The notes: generated from the sequence alone by a model not told the origin. A stretch of 41,502 nt of DNA from Candidatus Omnitrophota bacterium (GCA_021735655.1 JAIPGM010000013.1:1-41502), one strand, 5' to 3'; counted from the first letter of the stretch, positions 1,390 through 41,502 are shown. Program-made: numbers and translations.

Positions 1390-1452
1390 TGATTTATAAT
1401 TGTCAATTTAAAGCTAAAAATTGAAATTAGCTTGTTTTTTCAAACAAAATAT

Positions 1453-1481
1453 GTTACAGTTGAGATGGTTCATTTGATAAT
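1453..1481 (+). promoter_or_regulatory. Putative sigma70-type promoter driving the riboswitch and small-protein transcript.
   Basis: -35-like GTTACA at about 1453-1458, a 17-nt spacer, and -10 GATAAT at about 1476-1481 preceded by TG. The predicted TSS falls at about 1488, at the 5' edge of the aptamer. Confidence 0.35.
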
Positions 1482-1487
1482 TAGTTT

Positions 1488-1572
1488 TCCTTTGATAAAG
1501 GCAAATTTCGAGTGATCGAAAGACGCAAAGCCACCTGTCCTGATTAACAGGAAAGAGGGGTTACCAAAGAAC
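1488..1572 (+). promoter_or_regulatory. Candidate c-di-GMP-I (GEMM) riboswitch aptamer.
   Basis: Ordered conserved blocks: GGCAAA (1500-1505); hairpin UUUCGA-GUGA-UCGAAA with a GNRA tetraloop (1506-1521); G-ACGCAAAGCC (1522-1532); second hairpin CCUGU...ACAGG (1534-1551); GGGGUUACC (1557-1565). These match the recalled Vibrio Vc2 GEMM blocks GGCAAACC...GAAA...GGGACGCAAAGCC...GGGGUUACC in order and spacing. Confidence 0.55.
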
Positions 1573-1582
1573 GTACTCGAAA

Positions 1583-1613
1583 CCCTAAGATTTATTGCCT
1601 TAGGGTTTTTTTA
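1583..1613 (+). terminator. Intrinsic terminator / riboswitch expression platform.
   Basis: 7-bp stem CCCTAAG/CTTAGGG, 9-nt loop, followed by T8. Confidence 0.6.
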
Positions 1614-1615
1614 TT

Positions 1616-1649
1616 AACCCTTCAGTCAATATTGCCTGAAGGGTTTTTT
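1616..1649 (+). terminator. Second terminator-like hairpin, paralogous to the first. It covers the TTG at 1632 and lies just upstream of the ATG at 1662.
   Basis: 8-bp stem CCCTTCAG/CTGAAGGG, 10-nt loop, followed by T6. The loop and 3' arm share ATTGCCT with the first hairpin. Confidence 0.5.
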
Positions 1650-1661
1650 AATTTAAAGACG

Positions 1662-1991
1662 ATGAAAAACACAAGTTTCTACACAAGACGATTTAAAGGG
1701 TTGATGGCGCTAGTATGCGGGGTTTCCGTGGTTGTGGGGGCATTTTTGGCCAATCCTTGCTATGCCAAGGAAAGTAAGAGTTTCAGCATCTCGATAACTA
1801 TTCCCAAAATCATAGAACAAGTAAATAAGCCTCTTAATCCCCCTCTTCTGAGAGCAGAAGAGCCTGAAGAAAAAGACACAGGGGAAAGGGACAAAAAAAA
1901 CGAAGTCGAAGCCGACGAGAGCAATTCAAACAAGCTAGACTACCCTGAAGGCTACACGATAATCGTTAAAACTATTGTCCAAGAGCCTTAA
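1662..1991 (+). CDS. Small secreted acidic protein (~109 aa with signal peptide). Only plus-strand gene in the window. The ORF-track start at 1632 (TTG, inside the hairpin) is replaced by the ATG at 1662.
   Basis: Start MKNTSFYTRRFKGLMALVCGVSVVVGAFLANPCYA is a typical signal peptide (cleavage after CYA). Mature region is rich in E/D/K. Sits directly downstream of the riboswitch and terminator structure. Confidence 0.5.
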   Translation: MKNTSFYTRRFKGLMALVCGVSVVVGAFLANPCYAKESKSFSISITIPKIIEQVNKPLNPPLLRAEEPEEKDTGERDKKNEVEADESNSNKLDYPEGYTIIVKTIVQEP

Positions 1992-2033
1992 TTGTAACCT
2001 AACCCAACCTGAATTTAATCAAGGTATAACTTA

Positions 2034-2805: not shown

Positions 2806-3603
2806 TTAAGAAGGAAAACTCTCGCTTGTTGAAGGAAATTGGCCATTTTTTACATCCTGAATAAACTTTAAAGTAGCCGAATGCACTTCCTGGCCTAAAC
2901 TTTTATAACGCCGGACGAATTTAAGTTCTTTGCCCGGATAAAGACCAAGAAAATCATAAAGAACTAAAACTTGACCATCACAATATTTACCAGCCCCAAT
3001 GCCAATGGTCGGAATCTTTAAACTTTTAGTAATCTGACGACTGACCGACAAAGGTATACACTCTAAAACTAAACTGAAAACTCCTAAATCCTCTAAAAGC
3101 TTTGCCTGGTTAAATAAATCTTTAGCTGACTTATCATCTTTACCCTGAACCTTATAGCCACCGAGAAGATGAGCAGTCTGAGGAGTAAGTCCGATATGAC
3201 CGACAACCGGAATTTTATTTTTAATTAATTTTTTTACTACCTGGGGACATTTACTAAACCATTCAATTTTAACTGCATCAGCCCCATGAGCAATAAACTT
3301 TTTAGCATAATAAAGGCATTTAGCAGGATCTTTCTGGTAACTAGCATAAGGCATGTCAGCAACTACTAAGGCTCGGGCCACCCCCCTAGCTACAGCTTGT
3401 GTATGATTAAGCATCTCAGCTATAGTTACTTCACGAGTTTCTTTTAATCCCAAAACAACATTAGCTAAAGAATCTCCGACCAAAATTATATCTATACCCG
3501 AAGCATCCAAAATCCGGGCAAAAGAATAATCATAGCAAGTAAGCACAGTTATCTTCTGCTTAGCTTTCTTGGCTAGAATATCTTTAACTTTAACCTTATT
3601 CAT
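2806..3603 (-). CDS. panB: 3-methyl-2-oxobutanoate hydroxymethyltransferase (ketopantoate hydroxymethyltransferase).
   Basis: ITVLTCYDYSFARILDASGIDIILVGDSLANVVLG and ADMPYASY are hallmark PanB blocks. Length 265 aa. Confidence 0.9.
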   Translation of the reverse strand: MNKVKVKDILAKKAKQKITVLTCYDYSFARILDASGIDIILVGDSLANVVLGLKETREVTIAEMLNHTQAVARGVARALVVADMPYASYQKDPAKCLYYAKKFIAHGADAVKIEWFSKCPQVVKKLIKNKIPVVGHIGLTPQTAHLLGGYKVQGKDDKSAKDLFNQAKLLEDLGVFSLVLECIPLSVSRQITKSLKIPTIGIGAGKYCDGQVLVLYDFLGLYPGKELKFVRRYKSLGQEVHSATLKFIQDVKNGQFPSTSESFPS

Positions 3604-37605: not shown

Positions 37606-38302
37606 GAATCTCTCCGTATCGGCGCTCTCTGGCTGAATAGGCAGCAACTGCTTTTTTGAGTTCGCTGTGATCAAAATCAGGCCAAAAAGTCTCGGTGAAG
37701 TAAAGTTCGCTATACGCTAAATTCCAAAGCAGAAAATTACTTATCCTCTGCTCCCCTGACGTCCTGATTAAAAGATCCGGCTCGGGATCATCCCCCAAAG
37801 AAAGATAACTCCCGAATGTCTTTTCATCTATGTCAGATTCGGTTAATTTTTTATTAATACAATCAGACACTATACCTCTGGTGGCTCCTACGATATCCCA
37901 CCGTCCTCCGTAATCTATAGCAATATTAAAGAAAAAACTCTTATGATTTTCGGTAAGATTTTCTAGTTCTTTGATTTTATTTACCGTTGTTTTTTTAAGT
38001 TTTGACTTCCGACCGATAACTTTTAGTCTTATCTCTTCCTTCATCAATTCCTTTTTGTAATCATCAAGAAACTTATCTAAGTAACGAAAAAGGAAATCGA
38101 TTTCTTTTTTCGGTCGATTCCAATTCTCGGTAGAAAAAGCAAAAATAGTAAGCGCCTGTACGCCTAGTTTCTTAGTCTCACGAACTATTTCTTTTATCTT
38201 CTCTATGCCTCGCTTATGGCCAGCTGTTCGCAAAAGGCCTTTTTTCTTTGCCCAACGGCCGTTTCCATCCATAATTATAGCAATATGTTGAGGAACTTCC
38301 AT
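37598..38302 (-). CDS. uppS: Undecaprenyl-diphosphate synthase (cis-isoprenyl transferase).
   Basis: HIAIIMDGNGRWAKKKG and FAFSTENWNRP motifs. Length 234 aa. Confidence 0.9.
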   Translation of the reverse strand: MEVPQHIAIIMDGNGRWAKKKGLLRTAGHKRGIEKIKEIVRETKKLGVQALTIFAFSTENWNRPKKEIDFLFRYLDKFLDDYKKELMKEEIRLKVIGRKSKLKKTTVNKIKELENLTENHKSFFFNIAIDYGGRWDIVGATRGIVSDCINKKLTESDIDEKTFGSYLSLGDDPEPDLLIRTSGEQRISNFLLWNLAYSELYFTETFWPDFDHSELKKAVAAYSARERRYGEIHG

Positions 38303-38324
38303 CCTAAGCCTGTTAGCGTTACCA

Positions 38325-38350
38325 ATTGATTAATTTATGTCACTAAAAAA
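38325..38350 (-). terminator. Strong intrinsic terminator ending the right-hand envelope cluster.
   Basis: On the minus strand, GGGGGC-CCCAAA-GCCCCC forms a 6-bp GC stem followed by T6. It lies ~50 nt after the stop of the 111-aa gene. It is the only GC-rich hairpin in this AT-rich region. Confidence 0.7.
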
Positions 38351-38401
38351 GGGGGCTTTGGGGCCCCCTCTTGCAAGAATACGTCGGCTACTATGGTTAA
38401 A

Positions 38402-38737
38402 TTAACGTTCCCCGAGCTTCTGCCTCATTAATTCTTCCTTCAAATTATCTTCCAGCTTATCTTTAAGCTTCTCAAGCTTAGAATTCTCTAAACTCAAAGA
38501 TTCTAGCTGAACATTCAAAAGGGTAATATCTTCCTTTAGCTTATCATTATCACCCTGGATAGTCTCTATTGTCTTTTTTAGATCTTCAGTGGCCTTTTCA
38601 CAGCTTATGTTCTTAGCAAGCTGTTTTTTGTATTCACTAGACAAAGAATTCATTTTAACCAATATCGACACACCGGCAATCACCAGAACAACGATTAAAC
38701 CGATCAAAAGACTTATAATTAATGGGCTATCTTTCAT
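38402..38737 (-). CDS. N-terminally anchored (single TM) coiled-coil protein.
   Basis: TM helix LIISLLIGLIVVLVIAGVSILV followed by a heptad-rich Lys/Glu/Leu sequence. ATGA overlap with the upstream OmpA-like gene. Confidence 0.55.
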   Translation of the reverse strand: MKDSPLIISLLIGLIVVLVIAGVSILVKMNSLSSEYKKQLAKNISCEKATEDLKKTIETIQGDNDKLKEDITLLNVQLESLSLENSKLEKLKDKLEDNLKEELMRQKLGER

Positions 38738-39366
38738 TTTAACTCCTCCTCTTCTAGCTGCGAGCCTAAAGGATCTGCCTTCTTAACCACCTTAGGTAAA
38801 ATTACAATCTCTACGCGTCGATTCGTCTGTCTACCTTCAGGGGTGTCATTAGATGCAACTAACTTGTATTCTCCATAGCCAATCGCTGACAACCGCAAAG
38901 GATTAATTCCCTCTTCTTCAAGATAATAAAGCACACCAAGAGCACGTTGAGCTGAAAGCTCCCAGTTTGTTTTCCAACGAGAGAATTTTATTGGTTCGTT
39001 ATCGGTGTGGCCTTCAATCCCAATATCATTGTCGGGAACTTCCGATTTGAGGATTTTGATAACCTTATCTAAAATTGGTAAGCTCTCTTTTCTTAGCTTA
39101 GCTTTTCCTGAATCAAAAAGAACTTCAGCAACAAAGGTTATCACTAACCCCTTCTCAGCCATCTCAAGGCGTACCTGTTTATCCTTTATCTCACCGGACA
39201 GCCTTTTTTCTAAAAGCTGCTGGGTACTTTTTAGCTCTTGAAGCTCACTTTTAAGCACCTGTATTTTTTCGAGATCTGAACGTCTTCCTTTTTGAAAAAC
39301 TATCGCACATCCGTTAAGAACAAAAACATAAATAACTAATAACAAAAGGCCTTTTTTGTTCATCAC
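38734..39366 (-). CDS. OmpA/MotB-domain lipoprotein with a central coiled coil.
   Basis: Lipobox VLNGC. C-terminal OmpA-like peptidoglycan-binding domain (GHTDNEPI...NWELSAQRALGV...NRRVEIVI). Confidence 0.75.
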   Translation of the reverse strand: MMNKKGLLLLVIYVFVLNGCAIVFQKGRRSDLEKIQVLKSELQELKSTQQLLEKRLSGEIKDKQVRLEMAEKGLVITFVAEVLFDSGKAKLRKESLPILDKVIKILKSEVPDNDIGIEGHTDNEPIKFSRWKTNWELSAQRALGVLYYLEEEGINPLRLSAIGYGEYKLVASNDTPEGRQTNRRVEIVILPKVVKKADPLGSQLEEEELK

Positions 39367-39518
39367 AACCTCACTCTTTATTTACTATTAGACTATAAGT
39401 TACTTACCATAAACAAACCAAAATTAGGTTATCATAATAGGCTTTACAAGTCAAGTAATTTGATACCTCAAAACTTACCCCCCTAACCTTCAAAACTCCT
39501 TTAAATAAAACAAATAAT

Positions 39519-39550
39519 AAGAGGCAACCCCAAAAGAAGAGTTGCCTCTC
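39519..39550 (-). terminator. Intrinsic terminator after the microprotein/lipoprotein unit.
   Basis: About 9-bp stem GAGGCAAC/GTTGCCTC with a 12-nt loop, followed on the minus strand by a TTATTATTTGTTTT T-rich tract, ~20 nt after the microprotein stop. Confidence 0.5.
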
Positions 39551-39570
39551 AACATATACTTTTTGCTATT

Positions 39571-39648
39571 TTATTTCTTAGGTTTAGCCTTCTTTTTAGG
39601 CTTCTTTTTAGGCTTACATTTACTCTTAGAACCACATCCACAAGCCAT
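39571..39648 (-). CDS. 25-aa Cys/Lys-rich microprotein MACGCGSKSKCKPKKKPKKKAKPKK (not in the ORF track).
   Basis: ATG preceded by a perfect AGGAGG with a 6-nt spacer. The upstream gene ends in tandem stops TAATAA directly abutting the SD site (minus strand reads TAATAAGGAGGTAACTCATG). TAA stop, then a terminator hairpin downstream. Confidence 0.45.
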   Translation of the reverse strand: MACGCGSKSKCKPKKKPKKKAKPKK

Positions 39649-39662
39649 GAGTTACCTCCTTA

Positions 39663-40007
39663 TTACTTTATAAGATTGTCCATTTTACTCTTAACATCGT
39701 TAACAGCCTGGCCGGCAGCTTCTTTTAAGGCAGTCTTGGCTTTCTCAAGAATACTTTTTGCATCTTGAGAATCTTTATCAACATATCTCAAGACATACTG
39801 GGCAAGATCAACTGCCTGCTGGAACTCTTTAGAATTATAAAAAGTTTTGGCCTGAGAAATTAAATAAGTCGCCTTCTCCTGAGTGTCTTCGATAGCTTTA
39901 GCAATGTTTATGGCTTCCTTACTTGATCCAGCTTTATTCGAACTGCAACCAACCAAAGATCCTGCTACAAAAATCCCCAACATTAGAACAATCAACCCTT
40001 TTCTCAT
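39663..40007 (-). CDS. Small helical lipoprotein of unknown function.
   Basis: Lipobox SLVGCSS. 114 aa. Predicted all-alpha, Ala/Lys-rich. Confidence 0.55.
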   Translation of the reverse strand: MRKGLIVLMLGIFVAGSLVGCSSNKAGSSKEAINIAKAIEDTQEKATYLISQAKTFYNSKEFQQAVDLAQYVLRYVDKDSQDAKSILEKAKTALKEAAGQAVNDVKSKMDNLIK

Positions 40008-40027
40008 ACTAACACCTCCCTATTACT

Positions 40028-40561
40028 TTAACCGTTCTTGTTTTTCAATAAACCAAAAAAGTTATAAACTCCTGATGCCCCTAAAAGACAATACCCCAAA
40101 AGAATCATCCAAAGTCCTAAACCAATTCTTACCTGTAAGACCAATTTATCCAAATCAGTAGTTTTAATTTTATAAACACCGACAAAAAATATTGCTAGGC
40201 CAACTATGCCAAAAGTAAGATACAGCCAACGGTTCTTTCCGAAAAACAAAACTAAAAGAAAAATAATAACCGCTAAAACCGGAGCTGCCCAGACGGCAAA
40301 GCTTTTCTTGTCGGTATTTTTTATGCCGGGATTAAATATCTGAATAATACTAATAACCAATCTTGAATCGGCGCCATTAGCCATAACCGGGATTTGAAAA
40401 CCAGAAATTGCCGCAATATTACTTTGTGCTTTACCGGTTAGAAGCTTTGATATTGCTCCTACCTGTTTTGATTCAACATGCACCCAAGGAAGAAAAAATC
40501 CTAAAACAATTATAACAACTGCCAAAAAAACTAATGATTTAAGTGCTACCTTCATTTCCAC
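40028..40561 (-). CDS. Integral membrane protein (~4 TM) of unknown function.
   Basis: 177 aa with four hydrophobic helices. No recognised motif. Confidence 0.5.
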   Translation of the reverse strand: MEMKVALKSLVFLAVVIIVLGFFLPWVHVESKQVGAISKLLTGKAQSNIAAISGFQIPVMANGADSRLVISIIQIFNPGIKNTDKKSFAVWAAPVLAVIIFLLVLFFGKNRWLYLTFGIVGLAIFFVGVYKIKTTDLDKLVLQVRIGLGLWMILLGYCLLGASGVYNFFGLLKNKNG

Positions 40562-40591
40562 GTCTCCTTGTTTTTGCAGAACTTTATCTAT

Positions 40592-40840
40592 CTATTTAGC
40601 AAACTTATTATACAACCAGGCTATTATAATTCCACAAATACCCGCATCTATAAATCCCCAAAAGCCTCCGATTAAACTTCCTAAGGTTGTAGCCTCATAG
40701 CCATAATAAATTGAACCCAGAGCTCTTACAAACCCACCCCCGTAGTTAAAAAACATTGCTACCATGCCCATAATTAATAAAGCTACCCCCCAAACAATAC
40801 CCAAAGTAAGCCCTAAAGCTTTTACATCTAATTTTGCCAT
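40592..40840 (-). CDS. Small 2-TM glycine-zipper membrane protein (GlsB/YeaQ/YmgE-like?).
   Basis: 82 aa. GxxxG-rich helices (GGGFVRALGS..LIGGFWGFIDAGICGIIIAWL). AGGAGG 4 nt upstream of the ATG. Confidence 0.5.
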   Translation of the reverse strand: MAKLDVKALGLTLGIVWGVALLIMGMVAMFFNYGGGFVRALGSIYYGYEATTLGSLIGGFWGFIDAGICGIIIAWLYNKFAK

Positions 40841-41053
40841 AGTTCCTCCTTATTTCTTAAAGGCTCTAATGACCTGAATAAAATTCTAGATTACCAAAAT
40901 TACAAATATATGATAGCTCCGGAAAAAGAATCGGTCAAATAGAAAAGAATAGTCCCCGGAAAGGATTTATATCAATTGGAGTTGGGATCCACTGAATTGT
41001 CTTATTCAAAGATATTACTATAAATTATTTATTTTATTTTTTTATATTCGTTA

Positions 41054-41359
41054 TTATTTATTCTGTTGTTGATCTTCTTTCACTCTCTGTTCATACTCTT
41101 TCATTTTTTGCTCATACTCTTCATCGTCTCTCTTCTTTCTTTGCTCGTGCTCTTTCACTCTTTGCTCGTACTCTTTAATTTCTTGCTTGTATTTTTCATC
41201 TCTTTCTTTCACCCGTTGATCGTATTCTTGCATATTTTTAAAATATTGCTTCTTTGATTCTAATCTGTCTGTCAGTAAAAAAATAAGGGCGGCTAGAGTC
41301 ACGATCTGTAGTATAACTACCGTAATTATTAATTTTTTAAATCCATTATTTTCTGTCAT
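41054..41359 (-). CDS. Single-pass membrane protein with a tandem charged EYEQRVKE-type repeat domain.
   Basis: N-terminal TM LIITVVILQIVTLAALIFLL. Then (K/E)EYEQRVKE(H/R/D) units repeated 4-5 times. AGGAGG 5 nt upstream of the ATG. Confidence 0.55.
   Translation of the reverse strand: MTENNGFKKLIITVVILQIVTLAALIFLLTDRLESKKQYFKNMQEYDQRVKERDEKYKQEIKEYEQRVKEHEQRKKRDDEEYEQKMKEYEQRVKEDQQQNK
41066..41240. repeat. Imperfect in-frame tandem DNA repeat (~33-39-nt units, TTTGCTCRTACTCTTTCA-like) encoding the EYEQRVKE repeats.
   Basis: Reiterated CTCTTTCACTCTYTGYTCATACTCTT variants are visible on the plus strand. Confidence 0.5.
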
Positions 41360-41502
41360 TACATCCTCCTATGTTAATTGTCCAGTATATTCTACTCTCA
41401 AAATATCAAGCCATTTATCGCAAGCCCTACATTAGGCTGGAGATAAATGGTAAACTTTTTTATCAGATTGTAATTTAAAATTACTAAAATCTTCAAATAC
41501 CC

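Follow-up and report, generated by a model that had tools for sequence, protein, structure and literature searches.

Can a frame of only 25 codons, lying between a lipoprotein gene and a transcription terminator, be a genuine gene, and what could so short a product do in the cell? This question is raised by a locus in a Candidatus Omnitrophota bacterium (GCA_021735655.1 JAIPGM010000013.1:1-41502). The window, by which we mean the whole stretch of DNA analyzed (41,502 nucleotides), is a contig of a Candidatus Omnitrophica MAG with ~38% G+C, and its 40-odd long ORFs are all located on the minus strand, the same strand as the frame in question, which we refer to as the microgene.

Layout of the microgene locus

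The locus consists of the following elements.

39571..39648, minus strand: microprotein gene, 25 codons plus stop; product MACGCGSKSKCKPKKKPKKKAKPKK
39654..39662, minus strand: Shine-Dalgarno (SD) site of the microgene, TAAGGAGGT as the full match to the anti-SD; GGAGG core at 39655..39659
39583..39615, minus strand: in-frame tandem repeat encoding (KPKK)n (Tandem Repeats Finder: period 12 nt, 2.8 copies, 95% matches)
39508..39551, minus strand: intrinsic terminator of the operon, with a stem of 14 bp (GAGAGGCAACUCUU/GGGGUUGCCUCUU) and a U-rich tail

The frame starts with ATG at 39648..39646, continues with 24 sense codons and ends with TAA at 39573..39571, and the spacer from GGAGG to ATG is 6 nt (TAACTC). 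The lipoprotein ORF upstream stops at TAA 39665..39663, and a second in-frame TAA at 39662..39660 forms the first 3 bases of the microgene SD. The tandem repeat also shows up as an exact 15-mer duplication. The G+C-rich hairpin of the terminator (39551..39518) begins 19 nt past the microgene stop; its fold of -24.1 kcal/mol (z = -5.1) was equalled or bettered by none of 200 shuffles. The arrangement of ORF, SD, spacer and terminator in the preliminary description was thus correct at every position.

Coding signals of the microgene within the contig

We then compared the microgene with the other genes of the contig. On the coding strand, GGAGG followed after 4-10 nt by ATG in an intergenic context was found only at real gene starts, four neighbouring genes included, and the SD of the microgene was joint-strongest among the 43 ORFs of the contig. 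The codon-usage log-odds of the microgene frame was 0.27 per codon, in the middle of the distribution of real genes. Of 1314 stop-free windows in a wrong frame or antisense, none scored as high, and 3.2% of stop-free shuffles with the same composition did so. At every residue other than Lys, the microprotein uses a preferred codon. The joint-strongest SD together with the optimal codons suggests an abundant product, and the microgene is probably strongly translated.

The microgene is the last cistron of a putative operon

The genes and promoters surrounding the microgene are listed below.

40910..40938, minus strand: promoter-like site TTGACC-17-TATCAT, 10/12 match, the best in the region
40592..40840, minus strand: cistron 1, 82-aa predicted membrane protein (tm82); ORF with SD TAAGGAGG, no Pfam family
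40028..40561, minus strand: cistron 2, 177-aa predicted multi-pass membrane protein (tm177); ORF with only a sub-threshold Pfam match
39663..40007, minus strand: cistron 3, 114-aa lipoprotein with lipobox ...LVGC; Omnitrophota-wide family
39426..39454, minus strand: conserved promoter of the OmpA-uppS cluster; -35 TTGACT at 39454..39449, TG at 39434..39433, -10 TAACCT at 39431..39426 (hexamers assigned by eye from the sequence)
38734..39366, minus strand: OmpA-family (Pal-like) lipoprotein gene; Pfam OmpA, E = 1e-19; homologues with 80-89% identity

The promoter at 40910..40938 probably drives an operon of tm82, tm177, the lipoprotein gene and the microgene. The lipoprotein has 17 homologues with 49-64% identity, among whose invariant residues is the lipobox Cys, and in L028 a tm177 homologue with 56% identity is found close to a homologue of the lipoprotein. 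The region is a plausible operon of small envelope proteins, of which the microgene is the last cistron, just before the terminator that precedes OmpA-uppS-cdsA-dxr. Past this terminator, a syntenic block carries the genes for OmpA and a 111-aa coiled-coil protein, followed by uppS, cdsA and dxr. The promoter of this block was near-invariant in the alignment (78% identity, almost gap-free) with the pattern CTTGACTT-N13-TGnTAnnCT, it lies 3′ of the terminator, and it is conserved whether or not a lineage has the microgene. The microgene unit is bounded by this promoter, and the OmpA-family gene and the microgene belong to separate transcripts.

The location of the ORF between the operon and its terminator, ~20 nt before the hairpin, raises the alternative that the act of translation alone matters, by shielding the mRNA 3′-end, by blocking premature termination, or as a Lys/Cys-sensing leader or attenuator of the OmpA cluster. 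Cys-rich leader sORFs that attenuate operons are reported from mycobacteria (bioRxiv 10.1101/834739), and these sORFs are, like the microgene, very short with several Cys codons. However, they stand at the 5′ end of the operon they regulate, with consecutive Cys codons and control over Cys-related genes, whereas the microgene is the 3′-terminal cistron, with a terminator and an independent promoter before the next genes. Moreover, the products of the downstream genes (OmpA-family, coiled-coil, UppS, CdsA and Dxr) are outside Lys/Cys metabolism, the minimum-energy fold contained no alternative antiterminator structure, and Rfam, searched over 38000..41502 at a permissive threshold, matched no family. 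The leader/attenuator form of this reading was rejected because of the independent conserved promoter 3′ of the terminator, which is present also in lineages lacking the microgene, and we consider it very unlikely that translation alone is what matters at this locus.

Homologues are found through the OmpA gene and not through the lipoprotein gene

The preliminary description had presented the frame as translationally coupled to the lipoprotein gene and had proposed a search for the peptide downstream of homologous lipoprotein genes. We fetched 77 loci around lipoprotein homologues and found no Cys/Lys-rich small ORF on either strand at any of them (0/77). The DNA 3′ of the lipoprotein gene varied by lineage, often carrying a gene for a 55-aa PLDc_N-type membrane protein or a signal-peptide protein, or a terminator alone, and the other neighbours of the lipoprotein gene were likewise non-syntenic. 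In contrast, with the OmpA gene as the anchor, three further lineages were found to carry the microgene at the same position and in the same orientation upstream of the OmpA promoter.

L080-83 variant: MGCGCGSMSKKKSKKKTKKKRKSKR; upstream gene PLDc_N
L091-94 variant: MGCCSSTSKCCKPKKKAKKKAKKK; upstream genes, three pseudopilin genes
L099 variant: MSCCKSSGCKSKPKKKTKKKTKAKK; contig begins at the SD

The lesson for method is that the upstream lipoprotein gene failed as an anchor, while the conserved downstream gene worked. The four lineages represent different OmpA clusters, with 75-82% protein identity and 69-77% DNA identity of the OmpA genes; copies within L080-83 and within L091-94 were identical over ~365 nt, without polymorphism. 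GGAGG, a spacer of 6-7 nt, ATG and 24-25 codons were present in all four. In the relatives, the microgene follows a PLDc_N or pseudopilin gene with a gap of 42-81 nt. The terminator stem core GGCAAC...GUUGCC is homologous in three of the four lineages (the window, L080 and L091), and the operon promoter of the window is homologous to the promoter before the PLDc_N-microprotein unit of L080, the two having TTTGACC ... GAGCTATCATATA in common. The transcription unit has thus inherited both of its ends, whereas the cargo genes in between are lineage-specific and have been exchanged. The adjacency to the lipoprotein gene thus holds in this genome, but it is not conserved, and given the very strong SD of the microgene itself, coupling to the lipoprotein is not a defining feature. 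The conserved linkage of the microgene is to the terminator and promoter before OmpA-uppS-cdsA-dxr and not to the lipoprotein.

At the slot upstream of OmpA, the microgene was found in 4 of the 11 lineages examined and was absent in L079, L084-86, L087-90, L095-98 and L100-104. The closest checkable relative, L079 (83% OmpA identity), is among those without it, while L078 (89%) has no upstream sequence. Several of the lineages lacking the microgene have a tRNA-Met at the slot instead.

The microgene has evolved as a coding sequence

Next, we compared the four variants residue by residue. M1, C3, K12, K14-16, K18-20, K22 and K24 are invariant, giving a tail of K-x-KKK-x-KKK-x-K-x-K; position 2 holds a small residue throughout (A, G or S), and each variant has a second Cys, at position 4 or 5. 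The preliminary description had described an N-terminal CxC...C cluster, of which Cys3 and the second Cys are conserved, whereas Cys11 of the window peptide varies among the variants. It had also proposed a comparison of codon positions, with conservation at the nucleotide level only pointing to a regulatory RNA. The pN/pS ratio was 0.28-0.68 in all six pairs, although with 25 codons, four distinct sequences and a Lys-dominated composition the power of this comparison is low. Differences were most frequent at third codon positions, with a tie with first positions in one pair. Synonymous sites are saturated, with pS of 0.43-1.0 in the microgene against 0.65-0.80 in the OmpA gene. In the DNA alignment, the ORF contained no gapped column, compared with ~51 of 116 columns from the stop to the promoter and 21 of the 66 columns of the OmpA leader. 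This pattern is of the coding type, and it also argues against the reading in which only the act of translation counts, since amino-acid features are kept while synonymous sites are saturated.

Could the frame nevertheless be non-functional, that is, a chance opening in an A-rich 3′ untranslated region with an SD left over from a displaced gene? A single 25-codon frame is not significant in itself, as ~11% of composition shuffles were stop-free; further, most relatives have no microgene at the slot, and the 12-nt tandem repeat of the tail looks recent. However, base shuffles of each ORF were stop-free in 10-12% per lineage, which gives a joint probability of ~1.5e-4 for four open frames, and the gene-like codon usage and joint-strongest SD argue in the same direction. 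Four lineages have kept SD, ATG, length and motif although their synonymous sites have diverged to saturation and indels have accumulated heavily in the flanks. A chance origin is thus highly improbable.

A six-frame check showed that only the sense frame and the antisense frame sharing its wobble positions are open in all four lineages. The real gene might therefore be on the plus strand, encoding a Phe/Leu-rich hydrophobic peptide of 43 aa (window 39542..39673), and the pN/pS of this frame (0.50 versus 0.43 for the sense frame) does little to separate the two. Nevertheless, the plus-strand frame contains no in-frame ATG, GTG or TTG in L080 and L099 and has no SD in the window and L091, its ends are not conserved, and charged residues break the hydrophobic stretch in L080. 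Its transcription would have to cross a terminator and would oppose every other gene of the contig. The lack of a start codon in two of the four lineages led us to reject the antisense hydrophobic ORF, whose chance of being the real gene is close to nil.

Taken together, the conservation of frame, SD, start, length, Cys3 and tail in four lineages, along with the coding-type substitutions, indicates that the microgene is real, as the preliminary description had supposed, and it is very probably a protein-coding gene under selection at the level of the peptide.

The microprotein matches no known family

The preliminary description had further regarded the peptide as unannotated. An exact look-up of all four variants among ~15 billion predicted proteins returned none of them. 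Neither the peptide nor a four-member profile matched a family in Pfam or NCBIfam, or a PDB chain sequence at E <= 10. A tandem-duplicated 50-aa query retrieved 9 word-sharing candidates, none of them at E <= 10, and tblastn against plasmids and phages gave nothing, with the low-complexity filter masking the Lys tail in this search. The family can be written as a DNA pattern (ATGNNNTGY-N24-AARNCNAARAARAARNNNAARAARAAR) and as a peptide pattern (M-[AGS]-C-x(0,1)-C ... K-x-KKK-x-KKK). A search with a degenerate DNA pattern recovered only family members in the collected loci and had 0 hits in viral contigs. A literature search for a described counterpart found none. On these searches, the microprotein represents a genuine new family that annotation has overlooked. 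Unannotated small-protein families already number in the thousands, and one more is in itself unsurprising; the family is new, but it joins the many small proteins of bacteria that have been overlooked.

The microprotein is a small polycation predicted to stay in the cytoplasm

The window peptide has a net charge of ~+11.5 and contains no acidic, aromatic or large hydrophobic residue. The four variants range from +10.4 to +12.5 in net charge and from -1.35 to -1.93 in GRAVY, none has Asp or Glu, and Leu, Ile, Val, Phe and Trp are missing from every one. No signal peptide or hydrophobic segment was detected in any variant. Methionine aminopeptidase cleaves Met1 before Gly, Ala or Ser, and with a small residue 2 the Met1 of the microprotein is presumably removed. 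Protein export requires a signal peptide or a dedicated transporter. Lacking a signal peptide and a hydrophobic segment, the microprotein should stay cytoplasmic, and without signal peptide or transporter an exported antimicrobial role is unlikely.

Several identities were rejected on these grounds. A secreted peptide was dismissed for want of a signal peptide and of any hydrophobic residue, and an Lgt/Lsp lipoprotein because the Cys stands at position 3, where Met and one small residue precede it instead of a hydrophobic core with a lipobox. A RiPP precursor was rejected because there is no conserved maturase; the genes within ~2.5 kb differ by lineage and are of envelope or housekeeping type according to precomputed Pfam labels. 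Type I toxins with Lys-rich C-terminal tails, reported for example from Clostridioides difficile (PMC5961336), are likewise small and unannotated. However, these toxins carry a hydrophobic transmembrane helix and are paired with an antisense RNA antitoxin, whereas the microprotein has no hydrophobic transmembrane segment, for which reason this identity was rejected, and its locus shows no antisense gene signals.

The Cys residues suggest another alternative, a mini metal-binding peptide whose CxC/CC pair buffers or passes a soft metal (Cu(I), Zn or Cd) and whose Lys tail serves solubility or localisation. Thiolate sites for metals are classically built from C-x-C or C-C pairs, and all four variants have the invariant Cys3 and one more Cys at position 4 or 5. 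Nevertheless, there are only 2-4 Cys per 24-25 residues, variable in number and spacing, no metal-homeostasis genes lie nearby, and the Lys tail, which makes up more than half of the peptide and is its most conserved part, is left unexplained. A metallothionein-like identity was rejected on account of the 2-4 Cys, of which only Cys3 is invariant, and the absence of a metallothionein family match in Pfam/NCBIfam. We therefore give a dedicated metal-binding function little chance.

Resemblance to known polybasic proteins

How might such a peptide act? Oligolysine tails and tails of the S/TPKK type, as in histone H1, bind nucleic acid. The x-K-K-K tail of the microprotein (x = P, S, T or A) resembles the C-terminal tail of H1 with its S/TPKK motifs, chlamydial Hc1/Hc2 and AlgP, but H1-type proteins, Hc1/Hc2 and AlgP are at least 100 aa long with many repeats and have no Cys cluster, and the microprotein has no Pfam/NCBIfam match. 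Mammalian protamine P1 and synthetic Cys-oligolysine peptides combine a polybasic chain with a few Cys, and their disulfide or zinc cross-links multiply the valency for condensation of nucleic acid. The microprotein is similar in having a polybasic chain and few Cys; however, protamine P1 is eukaryotic, Arg-rich, ~50 aa long and not homologous.

The ribosome offers a second comparison. The small proteins bL37, bS22 and bTHX bind rRNA electrostatically. bL37 (24 aa, pI 12.0) and bS22 (33 aa) are tiny, very basic ribosome components, and the bL37 gene of M. tuberculosis is unannotated (PMC10081302). The microprotein is like bL37, bS22 and bTHX (~26 aa) in size class, extreme basicity, lack of a fold of its own and frequent absence from annotation, but it shares no sequence similarity with them (PDB, E <= 10). 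Further, these ribosomal proteins are Arg/Lys-rich, free of Cys and phylum-wide, whereas the microprotein has a Cys pair, is patchy at the slot upstream of OmpA and stands in an envelope-gene context.

Considering these resemblances, we propose that the microprotein would be an unfolded cytoplasmic polycation of about +10 to +12, whose tail K-x-KKK-x-KKK-x-K-x-K would bind a cytoplasmic polyanion stoichiometrically. RNA/ribosomes, or else DNA, would be the likeliest targets of the tail. A metal ion or disulfide at the N-terminal thiol pair (Cys3 with Cys4 or Cys5) may hold the peptides together or attach them to a partner, and the higher valency that results could allow nucleic acid to be condensed or protected in ultra-small cells. 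That the microprotein acts through electrostatic binding to some polyanion seems rather likely. That the target is nucleic acid or the ribosome rather than the membrane we put forward tentatively, as a reading that may well fail. Our best explanation overall, a conserved gene for a cytoplasmic polycation that binds nucleic acid or ribosomes and is bridged through its Cys pair, draws on the analogies above and falls a little short of an even chance. Against it, every partner in the operon is an envelope protein (lipoprotein, PLDc_N, pseudopilins), which points to the membrane; no similarity to ribosomal or DNA-binding proteins was found in PDB, Pfam or NCBIfam; and presence at the slot in only 4 of the 11 lineages would not be expected of a core nucleoid or ribosome component, provided that the gene has not moved elsewhere in the other genomes.

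The envelope context of the microgene leads to the alternative of a peripheral membrane peptide, in which the polybasic tail would bind the head groups of anionic phospholipids at the cytoplasmic face of the inner membrane, with the Cys S-acylated or metal-bridged to a membrane partner, and would act together with the small envelope proteins of the operon. The microgene is always the last cistron among small envelope genes (the lipoprotein and two membrane proteins in the window, PLDc_N in L080, three pseudopilins in L091), and it adjoins the cluster of Pal-like OmpA, uppS and cdsA. Moreover, M-x-C-C or M-x-C-x-C followed by basic residues recalls the pattern of a dually S-acylated anchor. GAP-43 (MLCCMRR) and PSD-95 (MDCLC) are eukaryotic anchors of this kind, with a Cys pair and then basic residues. 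Locally, they resemble the microprotein in having Met, one residue, CC or CxC at positions 3-5 and basic residues, and the pattern (Cys pair at 3-5 plus basic residues) is present in all four variants, as a resemblance of pattern only. However, the anchors of GAP-43 and PSD-95 are parts of large proteins and depend on DHHC palmitoyltransferases; their likeness to the microprotein is a resemblance only. To our knowledge, neither DHHC palmitoyltransferases nor any cytoplasmic protein S-acyltransferase is known in bacteria, which counts against S-acylation. Hydrophobic residues are also missing from the peptide itself (GRAVY -1.35 to -1.93), and each lineage has other partner genes upstream, leaving no conserved specific partner. 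We consider a membrane peptide unlikely, although it is the main rival of the preferred nucleic-acid/ribosome-binding polycation.

A broader proposal would cover both targets. The microprotein might be a thiol-switchable polycation, an abundant 24-mer whose Cys pair is lipid-modified or bridged by oxidation or metal, and which reversibly tethers or condenses the nucleoid, the ribosomes or the anionic face of the inner membrane. Such a switch is improbable. If true, it would give prokaryotes an equivalent of protamine-type cross-linking, or of the eukaryotic anchoring by Cys-acyl groups and polybasic residues, neither of which is known to occur in bacteria.

Significance of the microgene

The microgene has 25 codons and is missed by standard gene callers, yet it is conserved in an uncultured phylum known from metagenomes. 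The design of the family is unusually simple, a thiol pair with an oligolysine tail, and it has no homologue in any library searched. Omnitrophota are mostly cells of ~0.2 um (PMC10066038). Should the microprotein prove to be a polycation of nucleoid, ribosome or membrane that is switched by redox state or metal, it would be relevant to the internal organisation of cells ~0.2 um in size. Omnitrophota cells are, besides being ultra-small, largely anaerobic. With a length of 24 residues, the microprotein can be tested as a synthetic peptide without culturing.

Ends and interior of the microgene transcription unit

The promoter of the operon that ends with the Cys/Lys-rich microprotein gene (the microgene) has the form TTGACC-17-TATCAT and, together with its flanks, is homologous to a promoter in L080, a locus of an OmpA-family gene relative.

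Window 40910-40938, operon promoter
L080 2444-2472, promoter of the PLDc_N-microgene unit
Window 40592-40840, 82-aa membrane protein, first operon gene, Gly/aromatic-rich, two-helix

The internal genes encode the 82-aa protein, a predicted 177-aa membrane protein and a lipoprotein in the window, whereas L080 carries PLDc_N. The transcription unit has thus kept both of its ends and exchanged the genes inside. No Pfam match at E <= 0.01 was obtained for the 82-aa protein.

Lys tail of the microprotein

Window 39583-39615, 12-nt tandem repeat, in frame, 2.8 copies, 95% matches, encoding the Lys tail

Since this 12-nt repeat is in frame, slippage could alter the tail length without breaking the reading frame.

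Promoter of the OmpA cluster and the slot upstream

Window 39426-39454, minus strand, OmpA-uppS-cdsA-dxr promoter, CTTGACTT-N13-TGnTAnnCT, extended -10 type

This promoter is almost invariant in all 11 Omnitrophota lineages inspected, and is far more conserved than the non-coding DNA around it. Upstream of it, a tRNA-Met(CAU) gene replaces the microgene in several relatives. Examples of this slot without the microgene are as follows.

L084 2680-2756
L097 1508-1700
L087 about 2040-2350

The L097 slot holds a group I intron (Rfam RF00028, 63 bits) with tRNA-like halves on both sides; the ARAGORN tRNA call is lost there. On inspection by eye, the slots of L087-L090 resemble this arrangement.

Lipoprotein family and its neighbours

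The 114-aa lipoprotein (window 39663-40007) belongs to a phylum-wide Omnitrophota family, present in the window and L001-L077, with 24 invariant residues and the core FYNSKEFQ...YVDKDS; no Pfam family reached the threshold. The next gene usually encodes either a small membrane protein of about 55 aa, PLDc_N-like by eye, or a small protein with a signal peptide, a pattern that suggests a variable cassette of small envelope proteins. Downstream of the homologue in L014 lies, at about 3350-3470, a distinct small Cys-rich ORF, MAKLKEGEKLVCVPCGREVVITNVGISGTTTWCCGRP..., zinc-ribbon or desulforedoxin-like in appearance; it is unrelated to the Cys/Lys microprotein family.

A plus-strand ORF elsewhere in the window

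Window 1390-2033, gap of 644 nt, the widest that separates minus-strand ORFs anywhere in the contig
Window 1632..1991, plus strand, ORF of 119 aa, TTG start

The ORF lies inside this gap and is the only sizeable plus-strand ORF in the contig that overlaps no minus-strand ORF.
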